64,000 nt of DNA. Source: Thermoprotei archaeon (GTDB taxonomy: Archaea; Thermoproteota; Thermoprotei; Gearchaeales; Gearchaeaceae). A program made the translations under genes and the position numbers. A model generated the notes under the pieces. The model was not told where the DNA came from. It searched no databases and saw nothing but the letters and a program-made list of their open reading frames with translations. The DNA lies in contig JAFMCU010000002.1 in NCBI GenBank assembly GCA_017857595.1, positions 458 to 64,457 of the forward strand, written 5' to 3'. Positions 1 through 33,084 of the stretch are shown piece after piece (positions within the stretch are counted from its first letter, which is position 1; the number at the start of each line of letters is the position of its first letter).

Positions 1-224
1 ATGCCTTTGTCCCCACGGGTAATCCGTTTCACCAAGGTTTCGCCTTCCTCAGCATGCTACATTCGTTGCCGAACGTAACATAACATCATTGACATTTAGC
101 GAAACCTTGTCCGTTTCTGTTATTTACCAGGCCTTCCGGCCTATGCCTCACGGCATCGTGGGTCCTTTTGTGACGGAGGACTTTCCTCAGGTTAAACCTG
201 ATAGCTACTCTATGCTCCCTTACC
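1..224 (-). ncRNA. rnpB: RNase P RNA, 5' portion (the rest runs off the window start)
   Basis: GC-rich island in AT-rich DNA. The minus strand reads ...CUGAGGAAAGUCCUCCGUCAC..., containing the universal CR-I GAGGAAAGUCC (forward 178-188). Further on are GGCCUGGUAAAUAACAGAAACGG and CCUUGGUGAAACGG, which resemble conserved RNase P core segments. The exact 5' end is uncertain. Confidence 0.6.
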
Positions 225-3580: not shown

Positions 3581-4930
3581 TTATGTAACATTATTATTTA
3601 TTTTTTTTAATTCTTCTTCGAGTATATCTAGTCCTTTTTCAATGAATTTTTCTTCCAAATTAAGAGGCGGTGCAATTCTTATTACTGATTTTCCTGCAGT
3701 TATTATTAATAAGCCCCTCTTCCAACAATTGATTATAAGATCATTAGCTTCTTTCATTGCATACTCTTTTGTTTTCTTATTTTTTACAAGTTCAACACCT
3801 ATCATAAAACCTTTACCTCTAACATCACCTATAATCTCATATCTTTCCTTCATTTCATTTAGCCTATTTAGAATTTCTTTACTTAGTAAAGAGACTCTAT
3901 CTAATAACTTTTCTTCTTCAATGACTTTTATAGTTTCAATTGCCGCAACACATGCTAGAGGATTCCCACCAAATGTAGAAGCATGAGCTCCTTTTGCCCA
4001 TTTCATGATTTTATCCCTTGCTACAGTAATGCCTAGAGGTAGGCCGCTAGCAATTGCTTTGGCTATTGTGATGATATCAGGTTCAATTCCATAGTGTTCT
4101 ATAGCAAACCACTTACCTGTCCTTCCAATACCCGCTTGTACTTCATCATCTATTAGAAGTATATTATGTTTGCCCGTAATCTTTTTTAACCTTTTGAAGA
4201 AATCGTCAGGAGGCCATACAAACCCGCCTTCACCTAATACAGGTTCAAATATTATTCCTGCAATTTCTTCCGGCGAAACCATTTTCCCAAAAATCCATTC
4301 TTCTATAAAATCTAAACAAAAGTAATTACAATCAGGAAAGTTTTTTCCGAATGGACATCTATAGCAATAAGGATAGGGTACATGCACAGTACTTGGTAAT
4401 AAAGGGCCAAATTTTTCTCTATGAACGGATTTTGACGCTGTCATGCTAAGGGATCCATATGTTCGCCCATGAAATGATCCAATAAATCCCATTAAATACT
4501 GTCTGCCAGTATAATATCTTGCTAATTTTAATGCTGCCTCATTAGCTTCAGTTCCGCTATTTGCATAATGAAATTTTAATTTATCCTTTATAGGGATAAT
4601 GTTCTTTAAGATTTTTGCCAATTCTAAAACTTCAGTATAATAAAAGTCTGTAATGCTATAATGAATCAATTTTTCTGCTTGTTGTTTTATCGCTTTAACA
4701 ACCCTATCGTGTTTACCTATATTTAAGCATAAAAGACCTGAATTAAAATCAATGTATTTATTACCATCTACATCAATAACTATATTTCCTTCAACCTTAT
4801 CAACATACAATGGATAGTATCTTGCGTATGATGGAGAGATTAAATCTTCATCGATCTTTAAATATTCTCTGGCCTTTTTCCCTGGCGGTTCTTCTAAAAT
4901 AATAGGTAGACCTTTTTCATCAACAACCAT
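3581..4930 (-). CDS. Class III PLP aminotransferase (4-aminobutyrate/acetylornithine aminotransferase family)
   Basis: 449 aa. LIDDEVQAGIGRTGKWFAIEHYGIEPDIITIAKAIASGLPLG and GSFHGRT motifs. Confidence 0.8.
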   Translation of the reverse strand: MVVDEKGLPIILEEPPGKKAREYLKIDEDLISPSYARYYPLYVDKVEGNIVIDVDGNKYIDFNSGLLCLNIGKHDRVVKAIKQQAEKLIHYSITDFYYTEVLELAKILKNIIPIKDKLKFHYANSGTEANEAALKLARYYTGRQYLMGFIGSFHGRTYGSLSMTASKSVHREKFGPLLPSTVHVPYPYCYRCPFGKNFPDCNYFCLDFIEEWIFGKMVSPEEIAGIIFEPVLGEGGFVWPPDDFFKRLKKITGKHNILLIDDEVQAGIGRTGKWFAIEHYGIEPDIITIAKAIASGLPLGITVARDKIMKWAKGAHASTFGGNPLACVAAIETIKVIEEEKLLDRVSLLSKEILNRLNEMKERYEIIGDVRGKGFMIGVELVKNKKTKEYAMKEANDLIINCWKRGLLIITAGKSVIRIAPPLNLEEKFIEKGLDILEEELKKINNNVT

Positions 4931-4996
4931 AATATATAAAGTAACTACTTCTTCATAAGTTTATTAAATTTATTTTAGTCAAATATATTAAAAATT

Positions 4997-5485
4997 ATGG
5001 GTAAAATTTTATCTTATAAAATTCAACCCCCTAAGGATGTTAACATAATAATAGGGCAATCTCATTTTATAAAAACTGTAGAAGATATATATGAAGCAAT
5101 TATGAATGCGTCTTCGAATATAAAGTTTGGTGTTGCATTTTGTGAATCATCAGGACCACGTCTAATAAGGAAAGATGGTAATGATAATAATCTAATTGAG
5201 TTAGCAGTGGAATATGCAAAAAATCTTGCATGCGGTCATTTATTTGTTATCTGCATTAAGCAGGGTTTTCCTATTAATATATTAAATAATATAAAAAATT
5301 TACCTGAAGTGGTAAACATATATTGCGCTACGGGTAACCCCGTCTTAGCTGTGATTTATGAGGAAGATGAACAAAGAGGCCTTCTGGGCGTATGTGATGG
5401 TTTTACACCTTTAGGAGTAGAAGATGAAGAACATGTTAATGAAAGAATAACTTTTCTAAGAAAAATAGGTTATAAAAGAGGATAA
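4997..5485 (+). CDS. Adenosine-specific kinase-like protein (PF04008 / PAE2307 family)
   Basis: 162 aa. The pattern IIGQSHFIKTVEDIYEA...FCESSGPRLIR...CGHLFVI matches the family as I remember it. Confidence 0.45.
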   Translation: MGKILSYKIQPPKDVNIIIGQSHFIKTVEDIYEAIMNASSNIKFGVAFCESSGPRLIRKDGNDNNLIELAVEYAKNLACGHLFVICIKQGFPINILNNIKNLPEVVNIYCATGNPVLAVIYEEDEQRGLLGVCDGFTPLGVEDEEHVNERITFLRKIGYKRG

Positions 5486-7227
5486 ATAGAAAAAATAAGT
5501 ATATTAACCACAGCATACAATAAATATGGTAAAATTTTACCATATTTAATAAGATCTAAAGTTGCTTTTTCATATATTATTGGCAAATCTCCAAATATTT
5601 TCAGCCTCGGTGTGCTTAGCGTCGAAAAGCCAACAATTGCATCTTCAACAGAATTAATAGATGCTTTTATAGCACTCTCTATTATATTGCATAATTTATT
5701 CCAGCTGTTTTTATCGTAGCCTAGTGGGTAATAACTATTTTTACCAGAAAAGCTTGCAGTCAATATATGTGAGTCAGTAGAGCATATAATTAGTTCTGTT
5801 ACTAAATTATTTAGCCTTTTTTCTATGTATCTTCTTAACTCTAAAATCATATTGTTCGAGTCAATTAGAATTAATGAATAAATGTCATCTTTTAATTTAA
5901 ATGTTATTACTTTGCCTATACCTGTGGTTTCTTTCCTAAATTCGGGGGGGACATAAAATTTATAATGCCCAATTTTTGTTTCATAGCAATTTGCATTTTT
6001 TAATTCTTCTATTAATTCTTTTATGCATCTTAATAATACACTGTTTATTTCTTCAATACAGGTCTTTATGTTATCACTATAAGAATTATGAGCATCTATT
6101 AAGAATAAATCTATAAAACCATTGTTTTTTGCAAATTTTCTTGCTTCTTCTTTAACTTTTATATCTATATCATCAAGTATTCCTTCTTTATTAGCTTGAA
6201 CTATTGCAATTATTAGATTATTTATTTTAAATCCTTTAACTTCTATACCATTATATATTTTTTTAACAATTCTAGATATCTTTAATGGCTGATTTGTATA
6301 AATTTTATTTATCTTATCAATCAATGTTTTTATAAATAAATTTTTATCATCGCTTGAAGTTAGATCATAAGCATGAGTTGTAGGACCATGAAATGGATAT
6401 ATTTCAACACCATTATGAAGTAATAATATTGTAGGCAAATCAGAGCTTCCTACATTTAAGAAAGGGCCTGGGTGTATTGGTAATTCTAACAAAGCTATAC
6501 CATGAGTATTTATATTGTTTTTTTTATTGAACTTTATTATAGGCACATCAAAAGATTTTTTAAAAATTTTTTCATCTTTTAGAACAGTCTCATAATAATA
6601 GTGATTTTTAGTTAACCATGTCAATAGGAAACCTTTAAAATGCTTAATAGCGTCAAATTTGTATTTCTTTTTGCTTATTATTCCAACATATTTTAGATAC
6701 AATAAAACCAAGATAATTGATAATATGTTAATAACATATAATTTTATTATTATTTCATATAAATTATTTATGTTATAAATAATAATCAATAAATATAAAA
6801 GCATATTTGTTATAATTATAAATTGGTATATTAAAAATATCTTAATTCTTGAAGATTTCGTCGTGAATAAATAAGTTATATATGATAATGTTGAAAATGT
6901 TATTACAAAAGAACTTGAAAAATATATTTTATATATTGGGATTGTAAACCAAATTATTACTGCTAAGATAATTCCGCCTAAATTGAATGTTTGTAATGCA
7001 ATGACTCGCCTAAAATTTATTTGTTTATCACCTAATTTAAGTAGTAAACTTGCCGGTACTAGCAGAATAGAAGCTAAGAAGTAATACAATAAATACTTAT
7101 AGTTAATTATGATCATAAAAGCTAAATTAATTGTGAAAAATAGTAAAGCTAAAATAATAACCTTAAATAAGGAAGGCGTAGACTTCAGTTCTTTATAATA
7201 CGCCGTCCAGTTCTTTGAGCTAATCAT
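5470..7227 (-). CDS. Polytopic membrane protein with a large C-terminal soluble domain (DUF2070/COG3356-like)
   Basis: 585 aa. The N-terminal ~200 aa are very hydrophobic with multiple predicted TM helices. The C-terminal domain carries HPGPF..GSSDLP, IDAHNS and CSTDSH motifs. Confidence 0.45.
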   Translation of the reverse strand: MISSKNWTAYYKELKSTPSLFKVIILALLFFTINLAFMIIINYKYLLYYFLASILLVPASLLLKLGDKQINFRRVIALQTFNLGGIILAVIIWFTIPIYKIYFSSSFVITFSTLSYITYLFTTKSSRIKIFLIYQFIIITNMLLYLLIIIYNINNLYEIIIKLYVINILSIILVLLYLKYVGIISKKKYKFDAIKHFKGFLLTWLTKNHYYYETVLKDEKIFKKSFDVPIIKFNKKNNINTHGIALLELPIHPGPFLNVGSSDLPTILLLHNGVEIYPFHGPTTHAYDLTSSDDKNLFIKTLIDKINKIYTNQPLKISRIVKKIYNGIEVKGFKINNLIIAIVQANKEGILDDIDIKVKEEARKFAKNNGFIDLFLIDAHNSYSDNIKTCIEEINSVLLRCIKELIEELKNANCYETKIGHYKFYVPPEFRKETTGIGKVITFKLKDDIYSLILIDSNNMILELRRYIEKRLNNLVTELIICSTDSHILTASFSGKNSYYPLGYDKNSWNKLCNIIESAIKASINSVEDAIVGFSTLSTPRLKIFGDLPIIYEKATLDLIKYGKILPYLLYAVVNILIFSIYPLL

Positions 7228-7264
7228 TTGGACTCTAAATTTTATATTTTATAAGTATTTATTT

Positions 7265-7438
7265 TTAAATTACAATTATGTTTGCATTTAATAGAATAAC
7301 GATTGATACGAGTAATATACTTAATATTATAAGCAATCCTGGGTTGATCTTTATTTTTGAAAGATCTTCCTCGTAATATGCAATAAGCCCAGCTGAACTA
7401 ATAGGAGTGGCCTCTTTTTTTCGTCTACTCCTGGACAT
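7265..7438 (-). CDS. secG: Preprotein translocase subunit Sec61-beta (SecG), not in the ORF track
   Basis: My own translation gives 57 aa: MSRSRRKKEATPISSAGLIAYYEEDLSKIKINPGLLIILSILLVSIVILLNANIIVI. It has the basic N-terminus, the SAGLI.Y.EE motif and a single C-terminal TM helix, as in archaeal Sec61-beta. Confidence 0.75.
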   Translation of the reverse strand: MSRSRRKKEATPISSAGLIAYYEEDLSKIKINPGLLIILSILLVSIVILLNANIIVI

Positions 7439-7458: not shown

Positions 7459-9663
7459 TTATTCTTTATTAAAATATTTATCCAATTTTTCGTAAAATTC
7501 CTTTTCATTGTATAGAGCACTATAAATTATTTTCATCTTCTTAAATAATCTTTCAGCTGTATAATTATTCTTTTCCTCAAGTTTTAATAAATGCTTTTTA
7601 AGCACATCGTTTTTTAATTCATATGAGATCTTATTTTTGCATCTGAAACATCGAGCATTTAAGGTAATAAAAGGATAGCTCTCACCGCATCTTTTACACG
7701 TAACCTTAATATTAACTTCACTTGTAATAATACTAACTAAACTTTTTAGTGGAAATACTTGCATGATTGTATCAGTTGTTATTGGGGCTCTAACCTTTAG
7801 TCTTATAGCAAATTTGTCTTTATAAGATGATACTTTATTATTAATTTGGTCGTTTAATATTATAAATTTTATATTAAAAATATTATTATCAATTAATGGC
7901 GAGTAGTTTATTAATATATCATTTAAAAAATATAAACTTATATCATTGGTCGCTGCGTATTCATTAAATAATTTATTATATAATTCAGGAGAGATGATAG
8001 CATATTCAGTATCAATATAACCTTTAACTATTACTGGATAGAATATTAAACCTTCCGAATTTGATATCAATAGAATGTTCAATAGATTTTTAAATAATCT
8101 TTTAGCTGAACCAATTAATAATTCCATTTCTTCTTTTAAATAGTCATTGATTTTTTCTATATTCTGCTTAAGTGAACTAGGGAGTAAAATTTCATTATAA
8201 TTAAGTTCAATCTCTTGCGAATCATCTATTACAATTTTACAGGGAATAGCCTTACATTTTATTTCAGCTAAAGCTACTTCGTTTATATCAATTGAATGCT
8301 TTAATCTAACTAAAGTTTTCAACGGATATTCTATGAGATGGATATCTTTATAATGCGGTATTAATTTTTCTGTTTCATCATAACCTAGAATTTTATTAGA
8401 AAATTTTTTAAGTAATCTTAAATAATTGATCTGTTCTACATAAGCTGATAAGGTGGTAGAGCCACATACTTCACAACTGGTATCTTTTCTAATATCATTA
8501 CAGTTGGTACAATAATATAACAAACTTTTGTTTAAATTGCATTCTGAACAATACTCAAAAATATCAACCTTGCCACATTTTTTACATAAAAAATGATGAA
8601 CTTCAACGTTAATTGTTTTATCAAATTGGTTTTTGAAAATAGCTGGCAATATGCAGTTGAAAGCCTCTTTGGGTTCTACATTTTCATCTAAAATAGTTAA
8701 TTTCAATGTTTCTTTTGAATCGAATTTGCTTCTTTCATTTAAAAATACTATTGTATCAATAGTATTTTTATTAATTATAAAAGCATGTTTAGAATTATAA
8801 TGTTGATAATTATCATTTTCATTTATGTATATGCAAGTCATATTTGATAAATTAAATACATTAATTAATGGTATATTAATATTGACTAAAACATTATTTT
8901 TTAATATAATTGATTTATTAACTAAATTACATAAATCATATAAATATTCTAAATTGATATTTAAATATTTACATTTTTTTAATATATTATAAACTTTATG
9001 ATTTTTGTATAGTATTAAATATATAGCATGATATAATAAATAAGGTATCATACTATTATTATCAGTATCTATAATATTTATCTTAATAGAATTTATTAAA
9101 ATATAAAATATATCAAATAGGTTGTTAAATACATCTATCGAGTTGGTATCAAAGTTACTTACCAAATATCCCCATGCTTGATCTTTTAATTCAGAATTTA
9201 CTTTATAACTAGAAGCATTTATTGTTTCTCTAATTTTTTCACCAAACAGGTAGGTAAGAAAACATACCCAAGGATTTTTAATAAACTCTTTCTTATCCAC
9301 CACAATTGTGATATTATTACCTTTTTCTATGTCTTCTTGATAAACTGCCTTTATACTATAAATTGGTGTTTTAAATTTAAAGTCAAAAAACCAGAGAAGT
9401 GCTGCTATTACACCTTTTTTAAGATTTTCATTAGTATCGGTATCTAAATTAATCTTTTTTAATGAGATATTTTCAATCAATTCTAAGCACGAACTTATTT
9501 TATCTGTATTATTAGCGGTCAAGAAGAAATTAGCAAGTTCAAAAGAGTTAAAGAACAGTAATAATAAATCATCCATATCTAATTTATAAAAAGGGAAAAT
9601 ACCTTCTTTTCTTAACGGTCTAAATTGGTTTTCTATATTAAATATATCAGATAAAATTTCCAT
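7459..9663 (-). CDS. Multi-zinc-ribbon protein, candidate degenerate homologue of the PolD large subunit (DP2)
   Basis: 734 aa. Four CxxC pairs at aa 360-400 (FLCKKCGKVDIFEYCSECNLNKSLLYYCTNCN..CEVCG). C-terminal CKRCGESYPFITLNARCFRCKNK is followed by ISYEL..KKHL..YTAERL..IYSALY. FLNDILINYS resembles DP2 LLDALLNFS. See findings. Confidence 0.45.
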   Translation of the reverse strand: MEILSDIFNIENQFRPLRKEGIFPFYKLDMDDLLLLFFNSFELANFFLTANNTDKISSCLELIENISLKKINLDTDTNENLKKGVIAALLWFFDFKFKTPIYSIKAVYQEDIEKGNNITIVVDKKEFIKNPWVCFLTYLFGEKIRETINASSYKVNSELKDQAWGYLVSNFDTNSIDVFNNLFDIFYILINSIKINIIDTDNNSMIPYLLYHAIYLILYKNHKVYNILKKCKYLNINLEYLYDLCNLVNKSIILKNNVLVNINIPLINVFNLSNMTCIYINENDNYQHYNSKHAFIINKNTIDTIVFLNERSKFDSKETLKLTILDENVEPKEAFNCILPAIFKNQFDKTINVEVHHFLCKKCGKVDIFEYCSECNLNKSLLYYCTNCNDIRKDTSCEVCGSTTLSAYVEQINYLRLLKKFSNKILGYDETEKLIPHYKDIHLIEYPLKTLVRLKHSIDINEVALAEIKCKAIPCKIVIDDSQEIELNYNEILLPSSLKQNIEKINDYLKEEMELLIGSAKRLFKNLLNILLISNSEGLIFYPVIVKGYIDTEYAIISPELYNKLFNEYAATNDISLYFLNDILINYSPLIDNNIFNIKFIILNDQINNKVSSYKDKFAIRLKVRAPITTDTIMQVFPLKSLVSIITSEVNIKVTCKRCGESYPFITLNARCFRCKNKISYELKNDVLKKHLLKLEEKNNYTAERLFKKMKIIYSALYNEKEFYEKLDKYFNKE

Positions 9664-10264
9664 TAACTACACTAATATATAATCCTACTATGACCGGATA
9701 TAAAATATTGTCGTTTATCTCAATTGGCAAGCTATCTAAAATAAAAATAATTGCAGATAAAAATAAGGCAAATATTAAGTTCATTATTTGAAATGACATA
9801 GCAAGCATAACTGCAGAACCAATAATAGAACCAACTAAACTTTTAGATCGGTTGTATGGTATTCGAGGCTTAGGTATCAACAAACCGCAAACGCTCATAA
9901 TAGGGTCAATAATTGTAACCGTTAGGCTTGAGACTATAAATATTATTGGTTGAAATAATATAGAAGAGATTAAAAATCCCGCTATAGAGTAAGTATGTGC
10001 TCCCACATAAGTTTTTTCATATGATCTAGCCAAGGTTTCAGCTAATTTTTTTAGTGGAAACTGTATATAGATTCTTATCCTTATTAGATCAGATATTATA
10101 GCAACTCCTAATAATAATGTATATAGTGTTATACTTAAATATCTGCCAAAAATCAAATAAAATATAAGAAGAAGTAACCCTATGGTTACATGGAAGGCTT
10201 TTCGAAGTATCTCCTTATGTAACTGTTTAATTTTATCATTTTCATAATTTATCTTCATGAGCAA
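9647..10264 (-). CDS. CTP-dependent polyprenol (dolichol/phytol) kinase family membrane protein (CTP_transf_1 superfamily)
   Basis: 205 aa polytopic protein. N-terminal LRKAFHV (RKxxH) and C-terminal IDPIMSVCG...IPYNRSKSLVGSIIG resemble the GDxxA..G...KSxxGS motif of COG0170. Confidence 0.55.
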   Translation of the reverse strand: MLMKINYENDKIKQLHKEILRKAFHVTIGLLLLIFYLIFGRYLSITLYTLLLGVAIISDLIRIRIYIQFPLKKLAETLARSYEKTYVGAHTYSIAGFLISSILFQPIIFIVSSLTVTIIDPIMSVCGLLIPKPRIPYNRSKSLVGSIIGSAVMLAMSFQIMNLIFALFLSAIIFILDSLPIEINDNILYPVIVGLYISVVNGNFI

Positions 10265-10985
10265 TTTCTTTTAAAAGTTTTTCATAACTATTCTCTAATA
10301 CATTACCCATTACAATTATATCTGCGCCAGCTTTTAACAATCTATTAGCATTCTCAATATCTTTTATGCCTCCGCCAGCGATAATTGGTATTGAAACTAT
10401 TTCTCTAACTTTCTTTATAACTTTCTCAGGTATAGGTTCTTCCGTTCCTGAACCAGCTTCTAAATAAACGAAACGCATTCCTAATAATTCAGCTGCCAAA
10501 GCATAATAGCTTATTAATTCGGCATATTTATAAGGTATTTTTTTAGCCCATCCTATATGTCCGGCCACCCCGCCTTCACCTAGTATTAAATATCCAACAG
10601 GTATAGTTTCTATATTGTATTTCTTAATTATAGGAGAGGCAAGCATTTGCGCTTCTATTATATAATATGGATTTTCAGAATTAAGCAAACTAATGAAAAA
10701 AATCGCATCTGCTTCTTGAGATATAGAATAGACACCACTGGGAAAAATCACTATGGGTATTTTTATCTCATTTTTGATTATTTTTATTGTTTTATCCATT
10801 AAGCTTTCAGAAATACCAGTTGAGCCACCAATTAGTATTAAAGGTGAGTTTGTTATATCTATAAATTTTTTTATAAATGTTAGCTTATTCATATCAAACT
10901 TTTGAGGATCTATTAAAGGCAAATATGTAGGATACCTTTTTTCAACTCTTTCATTTAATAATTGTTCTATTCTGCCAATTTTCAT
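10242..10985 (-). CDS. pcrB: Geranylgeranylglyceryl phosphate synthase (PcrB/GGGPS family)
   Basis: 247 aa. Motifs LIDPQK, GGSTG, VYLEAGSG and IIAGGGIK of the TIM-barrel GGGPS family. Confidence 0.8.
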   Translation of the reverse strand: MKIGRIEQLLNERVEKRYPTYLPLIDPQKFDMNKLTFIKKFIDITNSPLILIGGSTGISESLMDKTIKIIKNEIKIPIVIFPSGVYSISQEADAIFFISLLNSENPYYIIEAQMLASPIIKKYNIETIPVGYLILGEGGVAGHIGWAKKIPYKYAELISYYALAAELLGMRFVYLEAGSGTEEPIPEKVIKKVREIVSIPIIAGGGIKDIENANRLLKAGADIIVMGNVLENSYEKLLKEIAHEDKL

Positions 10986-11224
10986 TTTATAATACCACTA
11001 TAGTATTTATCTACAAATAGGTTATATGCATCAACAGGTTCGCCTCCTAAATAAAGTTCGACTGTAGCATTTAATTCACATGATCCGCATCTAACATATG
11101 CGTTATTTTCTTCCTTATTAATGTTTACAAAGACAGACTGTTTGCCACATTTAGGGCAAATAAATATTTTAGGTATCTTTCTTACCACTTTTTTGACTAT
11201 CTTTCTCCTTTTTCTTCTTCCCAT
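10982..11224 (-). CDS. elf1: Transcription elongation factor Elf1 homologue (zinc ribbon)
   Basis: 80 aa. Basic N-terminus MGRRKRRK, then F.CPKCGK...V.CGSC and PVDAYNLFVD, matching the eukaryotic/TACK Elf1 pattern (CxxC..CxxC..IDVYxxWxD). Confidence 0.75.
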   Translation of the reverse strand: MGRRKRRKIVKKVVRKIPKIFICPKCGKQSVFVNINKEENNAYVRCGSCELNATVELYLGGEPVDAYNLFVDKYYSGIIK

Positions 11225-11322
11225 TATTCACCACTCTTAATAAGGATGTACGCGATGATGCCGAATAGAGAAATTATTGTTATTATATAATATAAGTCCG
11301 TTAATATTGTAACAATATCCAT
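11224..11322 (-). CDS. Possible 32-aa single-TM micro-protein, translationally coupled to elf1
   Basis: My own translation gives MDIVTILTDLYYIITIISLFGIIAYILIKSGE. The stop TAA shares one nt with the elf1 ATG (TAATG). There is no homology evidence. Confidence 0.25.
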   Translation of the reverse strand: MDIVTILTDLYYIITIISLFGIIAYILIKSGE

Positions 11323-11349
11323 GACTACTATTAAATTAATTTAAGACTT

Positions 11350-11727
11350 TTATATAAGACTTGCGAGATTTAAATTTTTGCGCTGATAAGCTGCATTAAA
11401 AATATCATAGAGCTGTTCTTTTCTCAGTTTATACTCATTCATTGAATTACATAACGAGCATGCAATTAAATGATAACATGCTTTATTTTTATTACGCATT
11501 ATAATGTTAGTAAATCCTAAACATGAACACCATTCGTCTTTAATAACCAAGTAGTTAGACGCCTTACCTTGCACATAAAATAAATTATTATATTTTATCT
11601 TAAAGTGAAGCTTATTTATTTTATTACTAATTATCAACTCTTTAGCGATTCGAATTTTTTTAGATTCTCTCTTAATTATTCCAAATCTCTTAATATATAA
11701 CCTAATTTTCTTTTTCAATTTTTTCAT
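11350..11727 (-). CDS. SWIM-type zinc-finger protein
   Basis: 125 aa from MKKLKKK. SWIM motif WCSC-x14-CYH (CxCxnCxH). The track ORF (to 11787) is an artefactual extension through the tRNA-Pro gene. Confidence 0.55.
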   Translation of the reverse strand: MKKLKKKIRLYIKRFGIIKRESKKIRIAKELIISNKINKLHFKIKYNNLFYVQGKASNYLVIKDEWCSCLGFTNIIMRNKNKACYHLIACSLCNSMNEYKLRKEQLYDIFNAAYQRKNLNLASLI

Positions 11728-11729
11728 AG

Positions 11730-11803
11730 TGGGACTGCCAGGATTTGAACCTGGGTCACTAGGGCCCGAGCCTAGCAGTCTGACCAAGCTAGCCTACAGT
11801 CCC
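11730..11803 (-). tRNA. tRNA-Pro (CGG)
   Basis: GGGACTG...CTAGG-CTCGGGC-CCTAG...CCAGG-TTCAAAT-CCTGG-CAGTCCC-A. Anticodon CGG followed by G37. GC-rich island. Confidence 0.8.
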
Positions 11804-11886
11804 AATATTTAATTATAGTATTTATAATTTAAAATTAGCAGTTCCGAATAAGGGAACATTTAAATTACTATTTTTTAAATATCTTC

Positions 11887-13932
11887 ATGTTAGATTTTGG
11901 GCTTATAAGGGCAGTTAGTAATAATCTCAGACTTATGATACTTTATTACTTGAGTAATAAACAATGTTGTTCTATAAAAGAATTAAGCGCGTATTTAAGG
12001 TTGCCCGAAAAAAAATATAATTTTTTGTATTATCATGTAAAAAAAATGTTAGACTTCGGATTGATCTATAAAAATAATGAGGGATTAATATGCTTAACAA
12101 AAAAGGGTAAAAACTTGATTAACGTCTTGATTGATTTAAATAGATGGTCAAACGATTATAAAGAAGAGGATAAGTATATTATAAATTTGGATGGTTCTCT
12201 AAATAAAATAAGCATCCCCTATATAATTTCATATCTAAAAGGAAATTTTAATTTAGAACATGAAAATATTTTTAAAATATCTCAAATTATATATGAAAAA
12301 ATATCATCTTCAAATAAAAACCTCTACACTAATAGCGATATTTTAAAACTCCTCTTGACTACTTTCATTAAGGATAATTCATCAAAAGATTATCAATATC
12401 TATTAGATTCAGTTTTTATAACATTTCCATTTGAAAAAATATTATATTCCAATAATAAAAATTATGATATATGTATATTAAATCGAGAATATTATAATGA
12501 ATATTTCGTTAACAAGTTCTTAGATTATAATCAGATTATTTATTTTAAGATGAATTATTTTAATATTATAGATAAATATAATTTATTATCCGATGTAATA
12601 GATTTTTCCTTAAGAATTTGCATAAATAATTTAAATTTTGATAATATATTATACGACGAGTCATATATAAATAAATTAATTAAATTAATAAATAAATCTA
12701 TATTAGGTTGTAACATAGAATTATATTTCAATGATAATAATGTCAATAAAGTATCTAGCGTAGATCTAAAATTGTTATATCCATATATAATCTATATCCT
12801 AAGCATGTTAAATGAAAGGAAATTAATGATATCATTAAGGTCATATAATGATCTTAAGTGTATCAGTTCATTAACGGACGAAAATCTCTTAAAATATATA
12901 TTATATAGCAACATGATTAAAAATTTACCAAGCTGGAATTTTTTTGTGAGTAGAGAGATTTCTTCGTTGGTTAATTTTGTGAATAACACTAATAATTCTT
13001 TACTTGAATTATTTCCCTCTATTTCGTTTAGTAATGAATCAAGCATTAGTTTAACTTCTTATGGTTTTATAGGTGATGAATCCTCAACAACTTTTAATAT
13101 TAATTCACTGGTTTCTTTGAATTTACCTAAAATATTATTGGATAGTAAATCGAATGAAAACTTATTTTACGATACATTAGAGGATTTGTCTGTAAGTTTA
13201 TTCAAATATTTTGATAAAAGATATAAATTTCTGACCGATACAAGCTACAATACCCAAGTTACAAATGAGACATGCTTAAATTTTAGAATAAATATAAACG
13301 GGTTGTTTGAATATGTATACATTCTAACTGGAGAAACATTGCAGGAAAATAAAAATACCCAAAAAGAATATATAAAGCTTCTTAATTTCCTAAATAATGT
13401 AACAAACGAATTTCTACAGAATAGAGATTACGATGTGAAAATTTCAATTCTCAATGACGGAGTTTCACCTATTAAGTTTAGAGAGACGTCAATAGTAAAT
13501 AAGTTAAACAAGCTGCCTATTAGATATAGGCGCTATTTAATGCATAATGGTATTTCATGTAGTATAATTCCAAGCTGTTTTAATTACTCATCAATTTACG
13601 AGAAGATAATCAGAGAAACTCCTATTGTTTCTTTAATAAAAGGGGGGTATAATTATGAACTATGGCTTGATTTGAATAAGTTAAAAATAAATAAGCTACA
13701 AGAATTGTTCGAAAGTACATTATTGAAATATAAAATGAAAAACATAGAATTGAATTATTTTATAACGTTATGTATGCGGTGTAAAAATAAATATTTAGGT
13801 TTCTATGAGAGTTGTCCTTCATGCGGAAGTCATAACTTATTTTACGTAGCTAAGAATTACACAAAAATAGTAAAATTAGCATACGAGGGTGCGAAACAGT
13901 TATTAGAAAATAACTATTTATACATTATTTAA
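11887..13932 (+). CDS. wHTH plus ATP-cone-like plus class III ribonucleotide reductase (NrdD)-like protein, apparently lacking catalytic residues
   Basis: 681 aa. ArsR-like wHTH at aa 10-75. aa 97-165 are ATP-cone-like (YIINLDGSLNKISIPYIISYL...). NINSLVSLNLPKILLDS compares with NrdD NNLGVVTLNLPRIALDS. The C-terminal CMRC-x10-CPSCGS ribbon is followed by AKNYTK where NrdD has SRITGY. See findings. Confidence 0.5.
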   Translation: MLDFGLIRAVSNNLRLMILYYLSNKQCCSIKELSAYLRLPEKKYNFLYYHVKKMLDFGLIYKNNEGLICLTKKGKNLINVLIDLNRWSNDYKEEDKYIINLDGSLNKISIPYIISYLKGNFNLEHENIFKISQIIYEKISSSNKNLYTNSDILKLLLTTFIKDNSSKDYQYLLDSVFITFPFEKILYSNNKNYDICILNREYYNEYFVNKFLDYNQIIYFKMNYFNIIDKYNLLSDVIDFSLRICINNLNFDNILYDESYINKLIKLINKSILGCNIELYFNDNNVNKVSSVDLKLLYPYIIYILSMLNERKLMISLRSYNDLKCISSLTDENLLKYILYSNMIKNLPSWNFFVSREISSLVNFVNNTNNSLLELFPSISFSNESSISLTSYGFIGDESSTTFNINSLVSLNLPKILLDSKSNENLFYDTLEDLSVSLFKYFDKRYKFLTDTSYNTQVTNETCLNFRININGLFEYVYILTGETLQENKNTQKEYIKLLNFLNNVTNEFLQNRDYDVKISILNDGVSPIKFRETSIVNKLNKLPIRYRRYLMHNGISCSIIPSCFNYSSIYEKIIRETPIVSLIKGGYNYELWLDLNKLKINKLQELFESTLLKYKMKNIELNYFITLCMRCKNKYLGFYESCPSCGSHNLFYVAKNYTKIVKLAYEGAKQLLENNYLYII

Positions 13933-17085: not shown

Positions 17086-17655
17086 TTGAATATTCTTATA
17101 ATAGGTACACCGGGCGTTGGAAAAACAACAATTTCTATTAAACTTTCTTTGGATTTTAAATTAAACTATTTTAATTTAAATACAATATTTTATTATTTTA
17201 ATATGTTTTCAGGTTTTGATAAAATTCGTAATTCTAGAATTATAAAAATAAATAAAAATAAAACTTTATTGATAAATTTTTTTAAAAAAATCACTAATTC
17301 CATTATAGATACTCATATAGACAATATACCATTTTCAAATATTGACGTTGTTTTTGTTATTCGTCGCAATCCTTTAGTTCTAATAGTTCAGCTTAAGAAG
17401 AAATATAAAGAGAAGAGAAAGATTATTGAAAATGTCGAGAGTGAATTCATAAATTTGATTTCTGATAGCATACATAGCAAATTTGATAAAAGAATACCAG
17501 TTTTAGATGTAGCATCATATAAACAGATTTATAAATCATTAAAAGACATTAGAATAACTAAAAAGGAGTCAACTAAAGTGATAGATTGGATTAGAATATT
17601 ATCTAAAACGAATGCTATTGATAAATATTACAAACATATTAACAATTTTAAATAA
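17086..17655 (+). CDS. Fap7/AK6-like P-loop NTPase (putative adenylate kinase-type)
   Basis: 189 aa. MNILIIGTPGVGKTTIS P-loop at the extreme N-terminus. TTG start immediately after the thermosome stop codon. Confidence 0.55.
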   Translation: MNILIIGTPGVGKTTISIKLSLDFKLNYFNLNTIFYYFNMFSGFDKIRNSRIIKINKNKTLLINFFKKITNSIIDTHIDNIPFSNIDVVFVIRRNPLVLIVQLKKKYKEKRKIIENVESEFINLISDSIHSKFDKRIPVLDVASYKQIYKSLKDIRITKKESTKVIDWIRILSKTNAIDKYYKHINNFK

Positions 17656-18784
17656 ATAATATATAATTATCATCTTTATTACAATTATTAATACCAAATA
17701 ATTTTATTATATAGACATAATTTAGATTAATAATTAGTAAAAACTCATCTGTTTTTGGTATCAAATTCTTTAGCTTTATCTTCTTTAGGGTATCTTCACT
17801 TAAGATCTCTATAATTTTGTTGTGCAGATCCATGTAGCTATCATATGATATCAACATTATGTTGAAATATCTCAGTAAGTCTAGTTTTACAATATCATCA
17901 GTGATATAGAAAAGAATTATATTTTTCATTTTCAATACGGTATTAAGCATATCATATAGTTGTAAATTGTATTTTTCTATATGATTAATTATCAAGGTAG
18001 GAATGTTTAATATGAATATTATCTCATCTTTCATAAAGTAAATATAATATAAAATGATATAGAGAAGCATTAATTTAAAGTTGATTTCCAAATTAGATGA
18101 AAGTGGAATTATAAATATTTCTTGCTGATCTGCATCTACTTTACTTATTTTAATATTTTGTACTATTAAGTTATCAATTTTACTTAACTTACTTATTATT
18201 GAATACCTAGTTTCATTTTCAAAAGGGGTTCTAAGCATCAGATTCTTAACGCTTGATATTATCATTTTAAAATCAATTATTTCTTCATTCGGTGTATCAA
18301 ATAAATTATTTAATACATTGTAAAATAACGATGATTCCATATTAGAAAAGTCACATACAGTTTTAATTGTGTCTGTTATGAACTTTGATATTGTACTCTT
18401 ATCTATATAAAATAATTTACTTATAATATAATTGATATTTTTAATCAACAAAATATTAACTGACTGATCGTCTAAACCTAATATTATGTTATTCCAATCG
18501 AAAATTATAATTTTTTTATCTTTATATTTTAATAATATATAATTTATAAATTTCTTAATCTTATCATTTTTATCATATATTATATATAAATGACTATACT
18601 TTTTATAATTAATATCTACACTCCTATTTAGTTGATCATTAAAGCCTATTCTCAAAGCGTGGCTTAATTCGTTGCATATTAAAATAGAATATTCAAAAAT
18701 ATTGTCAAATACTTTACATAGTAATATGACACCTTCAATGTTATGATTTATATCTTTTTTCGCTCTTTTTATTATGTTAAGCAT
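17648..18784 (-). CDS. Hypothetical protein, last gene of the pilus-like operon
   Basis: 378 aa, N/I/K-rich, with no motif I recognise and no Walker A. Overlaps the upstream gene by 13 nt. Confidence 0.4.
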   Translation of the reverse strand: MLNIIKRAKKDINHNIEGVILLCKVFDNIFEYSILICNELSHALRIGFNDQLNRSVDINYKKYSHLYIIYDKNDKIKKFINYILLKYKDKKIIIFDWNNIILGLDDQSVNILLIKNINYIISKLFYIDKSTISKFITDTIKTVCDFSNMESSLFYNVLNNLFDTPNEEIIDFKMIISSVKNLMLRTPFENETRYSIISKLSKIDNLIVQNIKISKVDADQQEIFIIPLSSNLEINFKLMLLYIILYYIYFMKDEIIFILNIPTLIINHIEKYNLQLYDMLNTVLKMKNIILFYITDDIVKLDLLRYFNIMLISYDSYMDLHNKIIEILSEDTLKKIKLKNLIPKTDEFLLIINLNYVYIIKLFGINNCNKDDNYILFI

Positions 18785-19179
18785 TCAAAAAAATCATAAA
18801 TTAGGCGGTTAATTTTACTATTTTTTAGGCACTCAATTTTTTTACCGAACACTGCTTCAAGTTTTATTTTTACATTTTCGAATGCGTTTTCAATATTTGA
18901 AGGATTTTTGAAAAGAGATTTTGTCCATACTAACGCATATAGTCTTGGTTCATTGCCATAATCTTTAACATTTAAATTAGTACCTGTAAAGAAAATTATA
19001 TTAAGTTTAAGATCTTGTGCATCTTTTATACAAGACATTAAAATTTCTCTATTAATTTGGTTTATTGATTCAGATGTTATAATAAGGATCATGATAAAAA
19101 AATAAATGGCTTTATTCCTTTTTCTTATGAAATGAATATTTTTGTTATAATGTATAAATTTTAAGTTATTCCAATCCAT
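18772..19179 (-). CDS. Hypothetical protein with an N-terminal hydrophobic segment (possible minor pilin-like)
   Basis: 135 aa. RKRNKA-IYFFIMILIITSE could be a class III signal peptide plus hydrophobic helix. This is a weak call. Confidence 0.35.
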   Translation of the reverse strand: MDWNNLKFIHYNKNIHFIRKRNKAIYFFIMILIITSESINQINREILMSCIKDAQDLKLNIIFFTGTNLNVKDYGNEPRLYALVWTKSLFKNPSNIENAFENVKIKLEAVFGKKIECLKNSKINRLIYDFFECLT

Positions 19180-27745: not shown

Positions 27746-29008
27746 ATGGCAGTGTTCATAAAATTATTAGGTGGTGGAGGTGAAATAGGTAGAAATGCGA
27801 TTGAAATAAATTATAATAATAACTCAATTCTACTAGATTATGGTGTTATATTTAATTCAGAAATTGGTTTTCCTCTTAATGTAAACTTAAAAAAATTAAT
27901 TGGTATTATAATTTCGCATGCGCATTTAGATCATATAGGGGCTTTACCTTTAATATACAGTTCTAGCATAAATCCTAAGATCTATTTTAATTCTATGACA
28001 TCAGAATTAATGAATTTACTATTGCTGGATTTTTTAAAAGTCTCTAAAGGGAATCTTCAATTTGACGAAACGGGAATTTTAAAAATATTTGAAAAAAGTA
28101 GTAATGTACCATTTAAATATGATTTCATTATCAATGATTTTTCGATTAAAGTAGGAAATGCAGGACATATACCAGGTAGCTGGATTATCAGTGTTGAAGT
28201 AAAAAATAAAAAAATACTATATACAGGTGATTTCAATGTATATGATACAAAGTTATTAAATGGAGCTGAAGTTATAGAAAGAAACGTAGACCTTTTAATT
28301 TGTGAATCTACATATGCATGTGTTAATCATATTGATAGGCAAAAAGTAGAAAAATTATTTATAGAAAAAGTTTTAGAAACTTTAGAGAATAAAGGTAATG
28401 TTTTAATTCCTTCATTTGCTGTGGGAAGGTCGCAAGAAATTCTATGCATATTACAGAAATATAACATTAAATATCCAATTTTTTTAGATGGAATGGCTAG
28501 AAAAGCAAGCAGTATCATGTTAAAATATCCCGAGTATTTTAAAGATTATAACTTACTTAAATCATCTCATGATTTAGCTATTTGGGTTAATAATGAGAGA
28601 GAAAGAAAGCGAATATTAGATGAGCCATCGATTATAATTTCGCCAGCTGGAATGCTTAAAGGTGGACCCGCTTTAAATTACATCAAAAAAATAATTTCTG
28701 ATTCTCGTAATTCTATATTATTCGTAGGTTATCTTGCAGAAAACACACCAGGGAGAGAAATTTTAGAATCTCACACATTTACAACTGAAACATCAAAAGA
28801 AAAAGTTAAGGCTAATGTATATTGGTTTGGTTTATCATCCCATACAGACATGAAAGGAATAATAGATTATATAAAAGAAGTTAATCCACAAAAGGTAATG
28901 TTTATACACGGAGAAGTTGAAAGAATAATCGAAATGAGTAAATTAATTAAAAATAATTATTCTATAGATATTATTTTGGGCAAAACCGGTGAAAGTATTG
29001 AAGTTTGA
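27746..29008 (+). CDS. Beta-CASP metallo-beta-lactamase RNase without KH domains (aCPSF2 / aRNase J-like)
   Basis: 420 aa. LGGGGEIGRN, HAHLDHIGALP, GDFN and ESTY motifs, with a C-terminal SSHTD..FIHGE. Confidence 0.75.
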   Translation: MAVFIKLLGGGGEIGRNAIEINYNNNSILLDYGVIFNSEIGFPLNVNLKKLIGIIISHAHLDHIGALPLIYSSSINPKIYFNSMTSELMNLLLLDFLKVSKGNLQFDETGILKIFEKSSNVPFKYDFIINDFSIKVGNAGHIPGSWIISVEVKNKKILYTGDFNVYDTKLLNGAEVIERNVDLLICESTYACVNHIDRQKVEKLFIEKVLETLENKGNVLIPSFAVGRSQEILCILQKYNIKYPIFLDGMARKASSIMLKYPEYFKDYNLLKSSHDLAIWVNNERERKRILDEPSIIISPAGMLKGGPALNYIKKIISDSRNSILFVGYLAENTPGREILESHTFTTETSKEKVKANVYWFGLSSHTDMKGIIDYIKEVNPQKVMFIHGEVERIIEMSKLIKNNYSIDIILGKTGESIEV

Positions 29009-31179: not shown

Positions 31180-33084
31180 TTATTTCACTCTTATTGTTTC
31201 TCCAACTTCAGGTACATATGTTGATATATGAAAGTCTTTTCTTATTGCTTGGGATAAATTATGTAATTTACTAGGTTCTCCATGGCATAATATAACATTC
31301 TTTGGTTTGGTTGGCAAATTTTTTAAATAGTTTAGCAATTGTTGTCTATCTGAATGTCCTGAAAATCCTTCAGCAGAATACACTTTTAGCTTGACATGAA
31401 TAATTTCATTTTTTTCTCCAGGAAGATACACTTCTTTCGCTCCATCTTTAATTCTTCTGCCTAACGTGTTTTCAACTTGAAAGCTTGTAAAAATTATTGC
31501 ATTTTTTTCATCGCCAGCTAATAACTTAAAATATTCCACAGCAGGTCCACCTGTAAGCATGCCAGAGGTGGCTACTATGATACATGGACCTGCTTCGACA
31601 ACTTCTTTCCTATCAGCTACATCTTTAATCAAATTGAAGTACTCAGACGTGAATGGATTTACCCCTTCTCTAAAAACTTTTTCTTTAACTTCGTAGGAAA
31701 GTTCTTCTAAAAATGCAATGTGAATAGCAGTGGTTTCATGAATCATTCCTTCTACTAAAACAGGTACTTTAGGAAGCAAATTGTTTTCCATGCCTTCAAA
31801 TATGGTTAATAGAATTTCTTGTGCCCTTCCAACAGCAAGCATGGGCATTAATACTTTTCCACCGTTTTCAATAGTATTTTTAATTATTTCGATAAGTTGA
31901 TTAGTTGCTTCAATCCTATTTGGCATTATATCTTCAGGACCGCCATAGGTGCCTTCCATTATAATTGTTTCATTTCTTTTAAATTGATTGAATGCTTGGT
32001 CTAATAATCTAGTCTTAGCATATTTAAAATCCCCTGTATATACTAAATTATGATATCCTTCTCCAAAATGTAGATGAACTATACTAGAACCGAGTATGTG
32101 ACCAGCATTATATAATGTTAATTTAACATTAGGTGCGATATCAACAACTTCACCATAATCTAAAGTAAAAGTGTGTATTAAAGCATTAGTCAAATCAGCA
32201 TAGGAATAAGGAGCAGGTTTTCCTTCCTTTTGTGTAATATTAAGGTAGTCACTAATGATGAGTGTCATTAAATATTTAGTAGGTTCTGTCATGTATACTG
32301 GTCCTCTGTATCCATATTTGAATAAATAAGGCAAAGCTGAGCAATGGTCAAAATGAGCATGAGAAATTACTATAGCGTCTAATTTTTCAATTAACTTATC
32401 TATTAGGTAAAAAGCAGGAAATTCTTCATTTATAGTTTTTGCACCAGGCTTTAATCCTGCATCTAATAAAATGTTACTCGTATCTGTAGAAATAAGAAAA
32501 CAACTCCTTCCAACTTCATTGGCCCCTCCTAAATGTATTATTCTTATATTACCTACATTTTCAAGAATTGGTTCTCTATTAATTCTCATTCCTATGTTTA
32601 TTATTTCTTTATACTGTTCACTTAATTTTGAGAAAGTATATGAATCAACTGTTTTCATTATATCAGATTCTATAGGTGGTTTTCTATGGAGAATAACTTT
32701 CCAGCCGGTTTTATTTACTATTTCCCATATATTTACATCACCTCTACCTCTAATTAGGGAAGGTCTAAGAGCGTATAAGTGAACTTCTCCTCTAATATCA
32801 TCAAAATAAATTAAATTTTCATCTAATAACGCATCTTTTGGTACTAAACTTTTTATAATTTCTTTAGCTTTTTCCTTTTCAACTCTAATTTCATCTAGTG
32901 GTCTAATTAGTATTTTTTTTCTTAATGCCTTAGCCAGCTTAGGTGCTATTCCGGTCTCTCCTGTTATTAAAGAAATATTATCAGTGTATAATGATAGATA
33001 AGGACCTTCGAATTCTATTTTAATGTTAACATCTTTTGGTAAGTATTCAAATAAAACATTCTTAATTTTATCATATAAAGACAT
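31180..33084 (-). CDS. aCPSF1 / FttA: KH-domain beta-CASP ribonuclease (transcription termination factor)
   Basis: 634 aa. N-terminal KH-like region, then GGANEVGRSC, HAHFDHCSALP, GDFK and a C-terminal GFSGHSD..LCHGE. Confidence 0.85.
   Translation of the reverse strand: MSLYDKIKNVLFEYLPKDVNIKIEFEGPYLSLYTDNISLITGETGIAPKLAKALRKKILIRPLDEIRVEKEKAKEIIKSLVPKDALLDENLIYFDDIRGEVHLYALRPSLIRGRGDVNIWEIVNKTGWKVILHRKPPIESDIMKTVDSYTFSKLSEQYKEIINIGMRINREPILENVGNIRIIHLGGANEVGRSCFLISTDTSNILLDAGLKPGAKTINEEFPAFYLIDKLIEKLDAIVISHAHFDHCSALPYLFKYGYRGPVYMTEPTKYLMTLIISDYLNITQKEGKPAPYSYADLTNALIHTFTLDYGEVVDIAPNVKLTLYNAGHILGSSIVHLHFGEGYHNLVYTGDFKYAKTRLLDQAFNQFKRNETIIMEGTYGGPEDIMPNRIEATNQLIEIIKNTIENGGKVLMPMLAVGRAQEILLTIFEGMENNLLPKVPVLVEGMIHETTAIHIAFLEELSYEVKEKVFREGVNPFTSEYFNLIKDVADRKEVVEAGPCIIVATSGMLTGGPAVEYFKLLAGDEKNAIIFTSFQVENTLGRRIKDGAKEVYLPGEKNEIIHVKLKVYSAEGFSGHSDRQQLLNYLKNLPTKPKNVILCHGEPSKLHNLSQAIRKDFHISTYVPEVGETIRVK

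Follow-up and report, generated by a model that had tools for sequence, protein, structure and literature searches.

An open reading frame (ORF) on the minus strand at positions 7459..9663 of a 64,000-nucleotide stretch from Thermoprotei archaeon (assembly GCA_017857595.1, contig JAFMCU010000002.1, positions 458 to 64,457; the whole stretch is referred to as the window) almost certainly encodes a catalytically dead and truncated derivative of DP2, the large subunit of the DNA polymerase PolD. The ORF is complete, starts with ATG in the ORF listing, and encodes 734 amino acid residues (aa), as the initial annotation of this DNA had described. The product (referred to as the DP2-like protein) is probably inherited vertically from the PolD large subunit and has about 60% of the length of canonical DP2 (about 1100-1300 aa). 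The initial annotation had proposed a DP2-derived protein without the acidic catalytic motif, and this was supported by profile, structure, alignment, and synteny comparisons. At least one deep crenarchaeal lineage has therefore kept a selected, non-catalytic DP2 remnant rather than simply losing PolD, and this remnant corresponds to the modules that contact DP1, PCNA, and primase in active PolD.

The source organism, a crenarchaeon from hot springs, belongs to the NAG1/Geoarchaeia lineage (Thermoproteota). The YNPFFA single cells represent the Great Boiling Spring population of NAG1 ("Geoarchaeota"), with a G+C content of 28.6-32.2% (PMC5671600), and that of the window (~29%) was in agreement with this range. 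In textbooks and reviews, Crenarchaeota are described as lacking PolD, the genome being replicated by family B polymerases (PMC4104785, PMC7281927, PMC7544198). On the other hand, in the arCOG HMM screen by Kohtz et al. (2022), five of five Geoarchaeia genomes were positive for both arCOG04455 (DP1) and arCOG04447 (DP2), while Nezhaarchaeia and Marsarchaeia scored zero for PolD subunits (PMC9723716, Supplementary File 2). A DP2-like gene in Geoarchaeia is, thus, already on record, and the premise of the initial annotation, a lineage generally regarded as being without PolD, was incorrect for Geoarchaeia. In a literature search that did not reach the original NAG1 genome papers, no statement was found on a geoarchaeal DP2 of half length, without the first double-psi beta-barrel (DPBB-1) and without the catalytic aspartates. 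Inactivated DP2s are a known kind of protein, and the NAG1 form is a new architectural variant of them.

Homology to the large subunit of PolD

When the single sequence was compared with the PDB (phmmer), four DP2 entries were the sole matches below E=0.01. The best match (6knb_B; E=4.8e-4) aligned aa 348-391 to DP2 703-746, and there was a weak second collinear stretch between aa 651-706 and DP2 1118-1179. The protein scored far under every curated DP2 family cutoff: NCBIfam PRK14714 (DP2 equivalog) was matched with an E-value of 4.4e-10 and 37.7 bits (cutoff, 1791), and another NCBIfam DP2 model with 32 bits (cutoff, 1269). At gathering scores, the Pfam PolC_DP2 models (N, central, and cat) matched neither the window protein nor any of 10 members of its family (see below), and Pfam gave weak zinc-ribbon noise alone on the window protein.

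The first protein search yielded one orthologue with 35% identity and an identical gene order. A profile of these two sequences, run without the word filter against 1.84 billion representative proteins, gave 24 matches at E<=0.001. Ten of these were family members or their fragments (E<1e-43; 686-765 aa when full-length), two were proteins of 705-715 aa (P0013 and P0014) at E~1e-7, and the remaining 12 were longer proteins, of which those that were checked were all Pfam-recognisable DP2s. A protein search with 12 sequences was swamped by low-complexity words and returned two known members together with three DP2s.

The profile of the 10-member family matched P. abyssi DP2 in the PDB with an E-value of 3.4e-27, through three collinear stretches (profile 344-711 to DP2 692-1178). 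The comparison of the family with an alignment of eight DP2s by hhalign gave a probability of 99.9% and an E-value of 5.4e-34 for aa 348-734 and DP2 622-end, reaching the last residues of both families. Three segments had initially been matched to DP2, and the alignment programs reproduced them in the same order. An AlphaFold2 (AF2) model was built on the 10-member family alignment; its mean predicted local distance difference test (pLDDT) value was 65.6, and aa 330-590 were the best-predicted part (pLDDT, 75-89). The top eight Foldseek matches of this model in the PDB were all DP2 chains (E=4e-16 to 3e-12; probability, 1.0), followed by beta' chains of RNA polymerase (RNAP), which are also double-psi beta-barrel proteins. 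Profile comparison, structure prediction, and a survey of orthologues had been proposed in the initial annotation; each of them agreed with a DP2 origin, with orthologues being found in related genomes in conserved synteny.

If the similarity were a matter of chance, the protein would be a generic multi-zinc-ribbon protein unrelated to DP2. Individual members in fact matched solely generic zinc-ribbon families of Pfam (DZR, HypA, and Zn_ribbon_6) with weak E-values, and the PolC_DP2 models were not matched significantly by any of them individually. However, regions outside the zinc modules aligned too (the second barrel (DPBB-2), the LLxDxLLNxS signature, and the C-terminal domain (CTD) helices); the E-values of the profiles ranged between 1e-27 and 1e-34, an independent structure search found DP2 at E=4e-16, and the gene shows positional orthology with that of a Pfam-recognisable DP2 (P0015; see below). 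Since the profile, profile-profile, and structure matches to DP2 exclude a chance zinc-ribbon similarity, we assign practically no probability to this explanation.

Retained domains, lost active site, and conservation

Canonical DP2 (Pyrococcus abyssi/Thermococcus kodakarensis; PDB 5IJL, 6HMS, 6T8H, and 6KNB) and the DP2-like protein share the order of their domains. Both contain the Zn-I and Zn-II modules (described by Sauguet et al. 2016; PMC4996933), a helix with E-P-x-E-K-x-x-L-R-x-K-H, DPBB-2, LLxDxLLNxS, a CTD with Zn-III, a tail resembling a PCNA-interacting protein (PIP) box (KLDKFF vs. SLDEFF) and, probably, as judged from weak similarity, an N-terminal helical domain. In contrast, DPBB-1 with GGFRxRYGR, D956 and D958, KRR, and HPxxH are found in canonical DP2 and are absent from the DP2-like protein. 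All of the features described in this section are on the minus strand.

The degenerate active-site loop (aa 566-578, FNEYAATNDISLY; 7930..7968) faces the KRR(N/D)CDGD(E/G)D segment of DP2. HMMER, hhalign, and MAFFT agreed in aligning FNEYAATNDISLY to DP2 KRRNCDGDEDAVM, so that D956, D958, and the third Asp were replaced by A571, N573, and I575, respectively: HPxxHAAKRR(N/D)C-D-G-D-x-D of DP2 corresponds to SPELYNKLFNEYA-A-T-N-D-I. D956 and D958 (P. abyssi numbering) are essential catalytic residues of DP2 (PMC4996933). The columns of this loop were variable and never acidic in 10 of the 10 family members, including the DxDxD positions, and this bore out the initial observation that the acidic residues were missing. 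The basic residues of KRR and the HPxxH motif flanking the catalytic loop were likewise lost.

The central domain of DP2 is also missing. Its place is taken by a poorly conserved linker (aa 251-335; 8659..8913) predicted with low confidence (pLDDT, ~30 over aa 252-331), with ~85 residues compared with the ~400 residues of the DP2 central domain. No profile match to DP2 ~220-620, the region containing DPBB-1 and GGFRxRYGR, was found in the family alignments, and none of the family members matched Pfam PolC_DP2_central significantly. DPBB-1 and its basic GGFRxRYGR motif are lost together with all the rest of the central domain; the initial annotation had noted the absence of GGFRLRYGR, and the profile comparisons revealed no central-domain similarity. 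A second reduction concerns the variable segment at aa 591-640 (7744..7893), which stands for a longer region of DP2 between DPBB-2 and the CTD: the gaps in the hhalign alignment corresponded to a net deletion of ~80-110 residues, and pLDDT was <50 across aa 593-637.

With one barrel and the metal-binding aspartates lost, polymerisation of DNA by this protein would be impossible, and the DP2-like protein is predicted to lack DNA polymerase activity. Replication would consequently depend on other polymerases, presumably those of family B. That the protein is still an active polymerase, with a non-canonical site or complemented in trans by a separate central/DPBB-1 fragment, is very improbable. 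Some acidic residues are invariant (D582, and also E445 and E491), split genes are known for large archaeal enzymes, and a separate DPBB-1 gene may exist. However, D582 is also present in canonical DP2 and is not among its two catalytic aspartates (PMC4996933), the D956/D958 loop is unconserved and non-acidic in every member, with KRR and HPxxH lost, and the metal-binding site would be missing even with a DPBB-1 acting in trans. A practical warning follows for surveys based on the presence of arCOGs/COGs, in which Geoarchaeia are called "PolD-positive" though the large subunit described here is predicted to be unable to act as a polymerase; Pfam-based annotation, on the other hand, overlooks the gene entirely.

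Among the retained parts, the tandem Zn-I and Zn-II modules (aa 357-403; 8455..8595) aligned to those of DP2 and contain four CxxC pairs, with C360, C363, C372, and C375, and C385, C388, C397, and C400 as the ligands. Seven of these eight Cys residues were invariant across the family, and the eighth nearly so. The initial annotation had assigned these zinc pairs correctly, with a nucleotide range that was ~9 nt off. They are followed by a helical region and the DPBB-2 scaffold (aa 404-590; 7894..8454), which aligned to DP2 ~750-975. The helix motif LExPxKxxLRxKH, the counterpart of EPxEKGILRAKH in DP2, is kept in the former, and DEIILPxS and GLIxYPVKVKG in the latter. As judged by the high pLDDT of aa 330-590 and the Foldseek ranking of DP2 followed by RNAP beta', the DPBB-2 fold is present in the predicted structure. 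At its end, FLNDILINYS (aa 579-588; 7900..7929) represents the LLxDxLLNxS signature, with D582, L584, and N586 being invariant; HMMER, hhalign, and MAFFT all aligned it to LLLDALLNFS of DP2, in accordance with the initial annotation.

In the CTD, the Zn-III ribbon (aa 656-678; 7630..7698), with invariant ligands C656, C659, C672, and C675 (CKRC...CFRC), aligned to DP2 Zn-III, and the C-terminal helices (aa 684-724; 7492..7614) aligned to those of the DP2 CTD, as initially proposed; the AF2 model contains helices at 686-696 and 701-733. The protein ends with a putative PIP box, EKLDKYF (aa 725-731; 7471..7491), which aligned to the C-terminal PIP of DP2 (ISLDEFFGS in T. kodakarensis; PMC7594292). 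All family members have EKLDK[FY]F at their very C-terminus, with L727, D728, and K729 invariant and an aromatic or hydrophobic residue at 730-731. Together, the 12 zinc-ligand Cys residues (six CxxC pairs) were invariant in nine of the 10 aligned members. In one member of 765 aa (P0005), the second Cys pair is missing from Zn-I (CNKC...TCYKHK) and Zn-II and Zn-III are kept, a hint that Zn-I is under the weakest constraint among the zinc sites.

The N-terminal all-helical domain (aa 1-250; 8914..9663) is likely, albeit not proven, to be homologous to the N-terminal domain of DP2. Within it, the best-conserved block (aa 83-119; nt 9307-9417) reads KGVIAALLWFFDFK..P..I..YQEDIEKGNNIT, and the pattern AALL[WY]FFDF...P...I...YQE[ED]IEKGN is kept across the family. 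By hhalign, residues 29-205 of the family aligned to DP2 43-219 (probability, 59-77%; E=2e-5 to 9e-5), at nearly equal distances from the N-terminus in the family and in DP2. When this domain was modelled separately (pLDDT, 73), the top eight Foldseek matches were all DP2, with weak E-values of 0.01-1.8.

The family comprises ~10 clusters at 50% identity, all with intact ORFs of 686-765 aa, and is confined to NAG1/Geoarchaeia. A GTDB scan with the 2-sequence alignment gave no match, its patterns being too specific, and a 10-sequence scan found four loci, which placed the family in "Crenarchaeota archaeon SCGC AAA471-B05 YNPFFA" and in the "Thermoproteota archaeon" metagenome-assembled genomes (MAGs) JBEPZU and JBEPYP. 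A further member was found in a single-cell assembly (GCA_000402895.1), and also on a JGI contig of 550 kb. Overall identities between the lineages were 23-35%; for one pair of lineages, the DP2-like proteins were 34% identical, compared with 68% for GGGPS and 92% for the thermosome. The initial annotation regarded such divergence as specific to this gene; this was not the case, with three neighbours (the 135-aa, 378-aa, and NrdD-like proteins) diverging equally. Conserved positions clustered at the zinc ligands, in the DPBB-2 signature, in one block near the N-terminus, and in KLDKFF at the end, and D582/N586 and L727-D728-K729 were invariant in 10 of 10 members despite the low overall identity.

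In the window, the gene is part of a tight co-directional cluster on the minus strand: elf1 (10982-11224) and GGGPS/PcrB (10242-10985), both annotated by Pfam, a 205-aa membrane protein (9647-10264), whose gene overlaps the start of the DP2-like ORF by 17 nt, the DP2-like ORF itself and, downstream, sec61beta (7265-7438) and a DUF2070 membrane protein (5470-7227), the last two within 5470..7438. The overlapping operon with elf1 and GGGPS, recognised in the initial annotation, was confirmed by the ORF listing; the neighbour described there as polyprenol kinase-like is the 205-aa membrane protein, for which no family match was found. The synteny is kept in five further lineages, and the order elf1-GGGPS-membrane gene-DP2-like-sec61beta was found in every family member with enough flanking sequence. 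The DP2-like gene does not adjoin DP1 or cdc6.

It is improbable that this gene is a functionless, decaying relic, i.e., a slow pseudogene awaiting deletion. Such decay would be in line with the very fast divergence (26-35% identity between lineages, compared with 78-92% for their thermosomes), with the loss of all catalytic determinants, and with the N/I/K-rich low-complexity stretches and two long segments of low confidence. On the other hand, the ORFs are uninterrupted and of similar length in ~10 clusters, the overlapping-start coupling is kept in a conserved operon, and conservation is non-uniform: neutral decay to ~25% identity would have erased the zinc Cys residues, LLxDxLLN, the N-terminal block, and KLDKFF. 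Between the window gene and a near-identical copy, there were three synonymous and three non-synonymous changes, too few for dN/dS. Since intact ORFs, the zinc Cys residues, and the PIP-like motif persist across lineages that are 23-35% identical, we conclude that the gene is maintained by selection. The pattern is one in which the enzymatic constraint is lost and the structural and interaction constraints are kept, and differs from that of a pseudogene; the term "relic" used initially, thus, undersells a maintained non-catalytic derivative.

Related inactivated subunits and the possible role of the protein

A close parallel to the NAG1 family is P0015 of a related AT-rich lineage, encoded on a 545-kb contig (GCA_038872495.1, JAVZJZ010000002.1; locus L024). 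Among sequences outside the family, it was matched best by the window protein in tblastn (E=1e-11). Pfam recognises the N, central, and catalytic DP2 domains in P0015, and E-N-N-N-T is found at the position of D-G-D-x-D in DP2. Its gene (8983-12848), cut by the contig end, lies directly downstream of elf1 and GGGPS, matching the position of the window gene; the L024 GGGPS is 45% identical to that of the window, compared with 48-71% within the family. A DP1 homologue (4397-5767; E=1.7e-41 to P. abyssi DP1) is encoded 4 kb upstream, adjoining cdc6. The first phosphoesterase motif of this DP1 homologue reads LSNLNVGS instead of SDxHxGS, with the metal ligands lost, and the L024 pair is therefore likely to consist of a dead DP1 and a dead DP2. 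The P0015 gene and the NAG1 family are alike in locus position and in the loss of the catalytic aspartates; L024 differs in the full domain set of its DP2, in that the membrane gene is not in between, and in the DP1-like gene 4 kb away. The NAG1 family has the appearance of a further reduction, at an L024-type locus, following a full-length dead DP2. The DP2-like protein probably marks an intermediate stage of PolD loss within Thermoproteota.

P0013 and P0014 (705-715 aa) are "hypothetical proteins" of Nitrososphaeria/Nitrososphaerota MAGs, which are likewise short and triad-less, with zinc modules, CTD, and a canonical terminal PIP box (QxSLxEF[WS]) retained. The similarity between these short forms and the NAG1 family (E=4e-24) was weaker than that of each of them to DP2 (E=1e-32 to 1e-34). 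P0013 and P0014 align to DP2 392-1122, whereas the NAG1 family aligns to DP2 43-219 plus 623-1122, and a shared truncated ancestor was rejected because different parts of DP2 are kept. Their neighbourhood (loci L006-L008, 10001-12148) is also unrelated, with genes for AMP phosphorylase, malate/lactate dehydrogenase, and aconitase and the dnaK operon. These alignments suggest that the Nitrososphaeria and NAG1 short forms arose by independent reductions.

Lineages with both DP2 and DP1 inactivated have been described among Nitrososphaeria (GCA_002499005-like), Aenigmarchaeota, and Heimdallarchaeota B3/LC3 (Kazlauskas et al. 2020, NAR 48:10142, Fig. S16; PMC7544198), and P0013 and P0014 are probably related to the Nitrososphaeria proteins of that figure. 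The NAG1 family resembles these inactivated DP2s in being DP2-derived, without an active site, and present in archaea replicating by other polymerases; it differs in its lineage (Thermoproteota/Geoarchaeia) and in its truncation. Homology to DP2 combined with loss of the active-site aspartates, as in this class, was found in the DP2-like protein. Another variant was observed in an AT-rich organism (Logan SRR32456871 contig; L023, 495-5873): a 1034-aa DP2 (P0022), in which RNKRNNEVK replaces the catalytic aspartates, is encoded two genes downstream of a DP1 with intact DLHVGS and GDLVDG motifs. These motifs suggest a pairing of an inactive large subunit with a possibly active small subunit.

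In canonical PolD, the CTD of DP2 docks DP1 (Mayanagi et al. 2020; PMC7594292), the C-terminal PIP of T. kodakarensis DP2 binds PCNA and, ahead of PCNA loading, primase (PMC7594292; PMC8096248), and DP1 binds the CMG-like helicase at Gins51 (PMC7594292; PMC8096248). Because the selected parts of the DP2-like protein are those mediating protein contacts in canonical PolD, an adaptor is the most likely role, and we consider the chances to be about even that the protein functions as a non-catalytic adaptor binding PCNA and DP1. The dead DP2-like protein would pair through its CTD with a geoarchaeal DP1 homologue, and, at the replication fork, the KLDKFF tail would recruit the resulting pair to PCNA (and/or primase). 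There, the DP2-like protein might act as a pure scaffold or as a carrier of the DP1 nuclease, with family B polymerases replicating the genome meanwhile.

Several points weigh against this role. The binding of PCNA and DP1 is deduced from the retention of a motif and domains alone, and the homology of the N-terminal domain is weak (see the hhalign probabilities and Foldseek E-values above). The protein evolves about as fast as its least constrained neighbours (the 378-aa and 135-aa proteins without matches and the NrdD-like protein), showing relaxed constraint. None of the operon partners elf1, GGGPS, the membrane protein, and sec61beta points to replication, and no replication genes were found near the locus. 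A second, canonical DP2 may be encoded elsewhere in the genome; walking outward from both window ends led to the rRNA operon, Suf genes, and genes for ribosomal proteins and PheRS, and no polymerase gene was found there. The geoarchaeal DP1 partner is known solely from a presence/absence table (PMC9723716), and no DP1 gene was retrieved on any NAG1 contig by three approaches. Canonical DP1 was not found by tblastn against the window and all fetched loci. A protein search with a DPANN DP1 gave, among the best 120 matches listed, only DP1s of the Pacearchaeota/Nanoarchaeota type. A metagenome scan seeded with the DP1-like protein of L024 yielded 80 loci with generic DP1s, and no known NAG1 contig was among them.

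Three DP1 candidates were rejected. An AT-rich one (L058) proved to be a canonical active DP1 adjoining cdc6, and the 378-aa ORF (17648-18784) and a 469-aa ORF near P0014, considered as cryptic DP1s, had no sequence match in the PDB.

The operon also speaks for a different role, in which the DP2 scaffold would be re-used in a neo-functionalised, nucleic-acid-binding zinc protein outside replication, such as a transcription or chromatin factor co-expressed with elf1. The gene is tightly linked to that of this transcription elongation factor, with no replication genes nearby; DP2 is an RNAP-like two-barrel protein, whose DPBB-2 remnant matched RNAP beta' in Foldseek; and the DNA-binding helix motif LExPxKxxLRxKH is kept. 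However, elf1-GGGPS-DP2 also occurs where DP2 is of full length (L024), and the neighbourhood consequently predates the reduction and tells little on function. Furthermore, the strict retention of a DP1-docking CTD and a PIP-like tail is predicted by a role in the replisome, not by free-standing DNA binding. We, therefore, regard neo-functionalisation as unlikely, albeit conceivable.

A more elaborate form of the adaptor role, which we propose only tentatively and hold to be less probable than its failure, is a "fossilised" PolD: the one-barrel dead DP2 and a DP1 homologue would bridge PCNA/primase to the CMG helicase, with family B polymerases carrying out synthesis. Eukaryotic DNA polymerase epsilon (Pol epsilon) offers a functional analogy (background in PMC4104785, PMC7281927, and PMC7544198). 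Its catalytic subunit contains an inactive C-terminal polymerase-like half and a zinc CTD, and associates with Dpb2, the B-subunit derived from DP1; the likeness lies in a dead polymerase module with a DP2-type zinc CTD docking a DP1-family subunit, while a family B polymerase performs synthesis. On the other hand, the dead module of Pol epsilon is of the PolB fold and is joined to an active PolB, whereas the NAG1 module is what remains of a two-barrel enzyme, as a separate polypeptide. If true, the "fossilised" PolD would be the free-standing archaeal counterpart of the non-catalytic C-terminal half of Pol epsilon with Dpb2. Together with the full-length dead DP2 of L024, there would then be a living series from active PolD through dead full-length and dead truncated forms to absence, which would document the replacement of PolD by PolB in Crenarchaeota and, by analogy, show how the DP2 CTD and DP1 came to be retained in the eukaryotic replisome once PolD had likewise been replaced.

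Beyond that scheme, the family provides a testable system for the non-polymerising roles of PolD in the replisome and intermediates for reconstructing the PolD-to-PolB switch. It also parallels eukaryotic replicases, in which a DP2-type CTD and an inactive DP1 are kept.

Other genes in the window

The context of the window is of the crenarchaeal type: it includes Elf1, EF-1alpha comes after S7 with no EF-2, RpoB is a single unsplit ORF of 1118 aa (38203-41559), and there are two proteasome beta genes (33094-33735 (-) and 37087-37698 (+)). This agreed with the initial annotation as regards Elf1 and the absence of EF-2 after S7; the "two beta subunits" listed there are true only of the proteasome, RpoB being encoded by a single ORF. 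The genes of the window are also found on a 406-kb hot-spring contig (Ga0080006_1174983).

A 681-aa NrdD-like protein (11887-13932 (+)) has an N-terminal helix-turn-helix and a C-terminal CxxC...CxxC ribbon, and its similarity to NrdD, the anaerobic ribonucleotide reductase, is limited to the C-terminal part of that enzyme (Pfam NRDD, 60.7 bits over aa 398-651; NCBIfam NrdD, 45.9 bits vs. a cutoff of 326). It is 30% identical between lineages, a divergence as fast as that of the DP2 derivative, and may be a second degenerate-enzyme derivative in the neighbourhood of the DP2-like gene.

The 378-aa ORF forms an overlapping pair with the 135-aa ORF (17648-19179 (-)). This pair is conserved yet fast-evolving (30-34% identity between lineages), and is syntenic in all NAG1 loci beside an AAA_18 kinase-like gene and the thermosome; neither ORF had a match in Pfam, NCBIfam, or PDB sequences. 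Two beta-CASP RNases are encoded at 31180-33084 (aFttA/CPSF1-like, with KH domains) and 27746-29008.

The 5' end of a 145-aa ORF (11350-11787 (-)) overlaps a tRNA gene (11730-11803 (-)), and its N-terminal part is probably spurious, the gene called in related loci having 116-125 aa. Position 1 of the window falls within the RNase P RNA gene (window 1-219), and tRNA, 16S, and 23S rRNA genes lie directly outside the window start (L021, 4556-9943).

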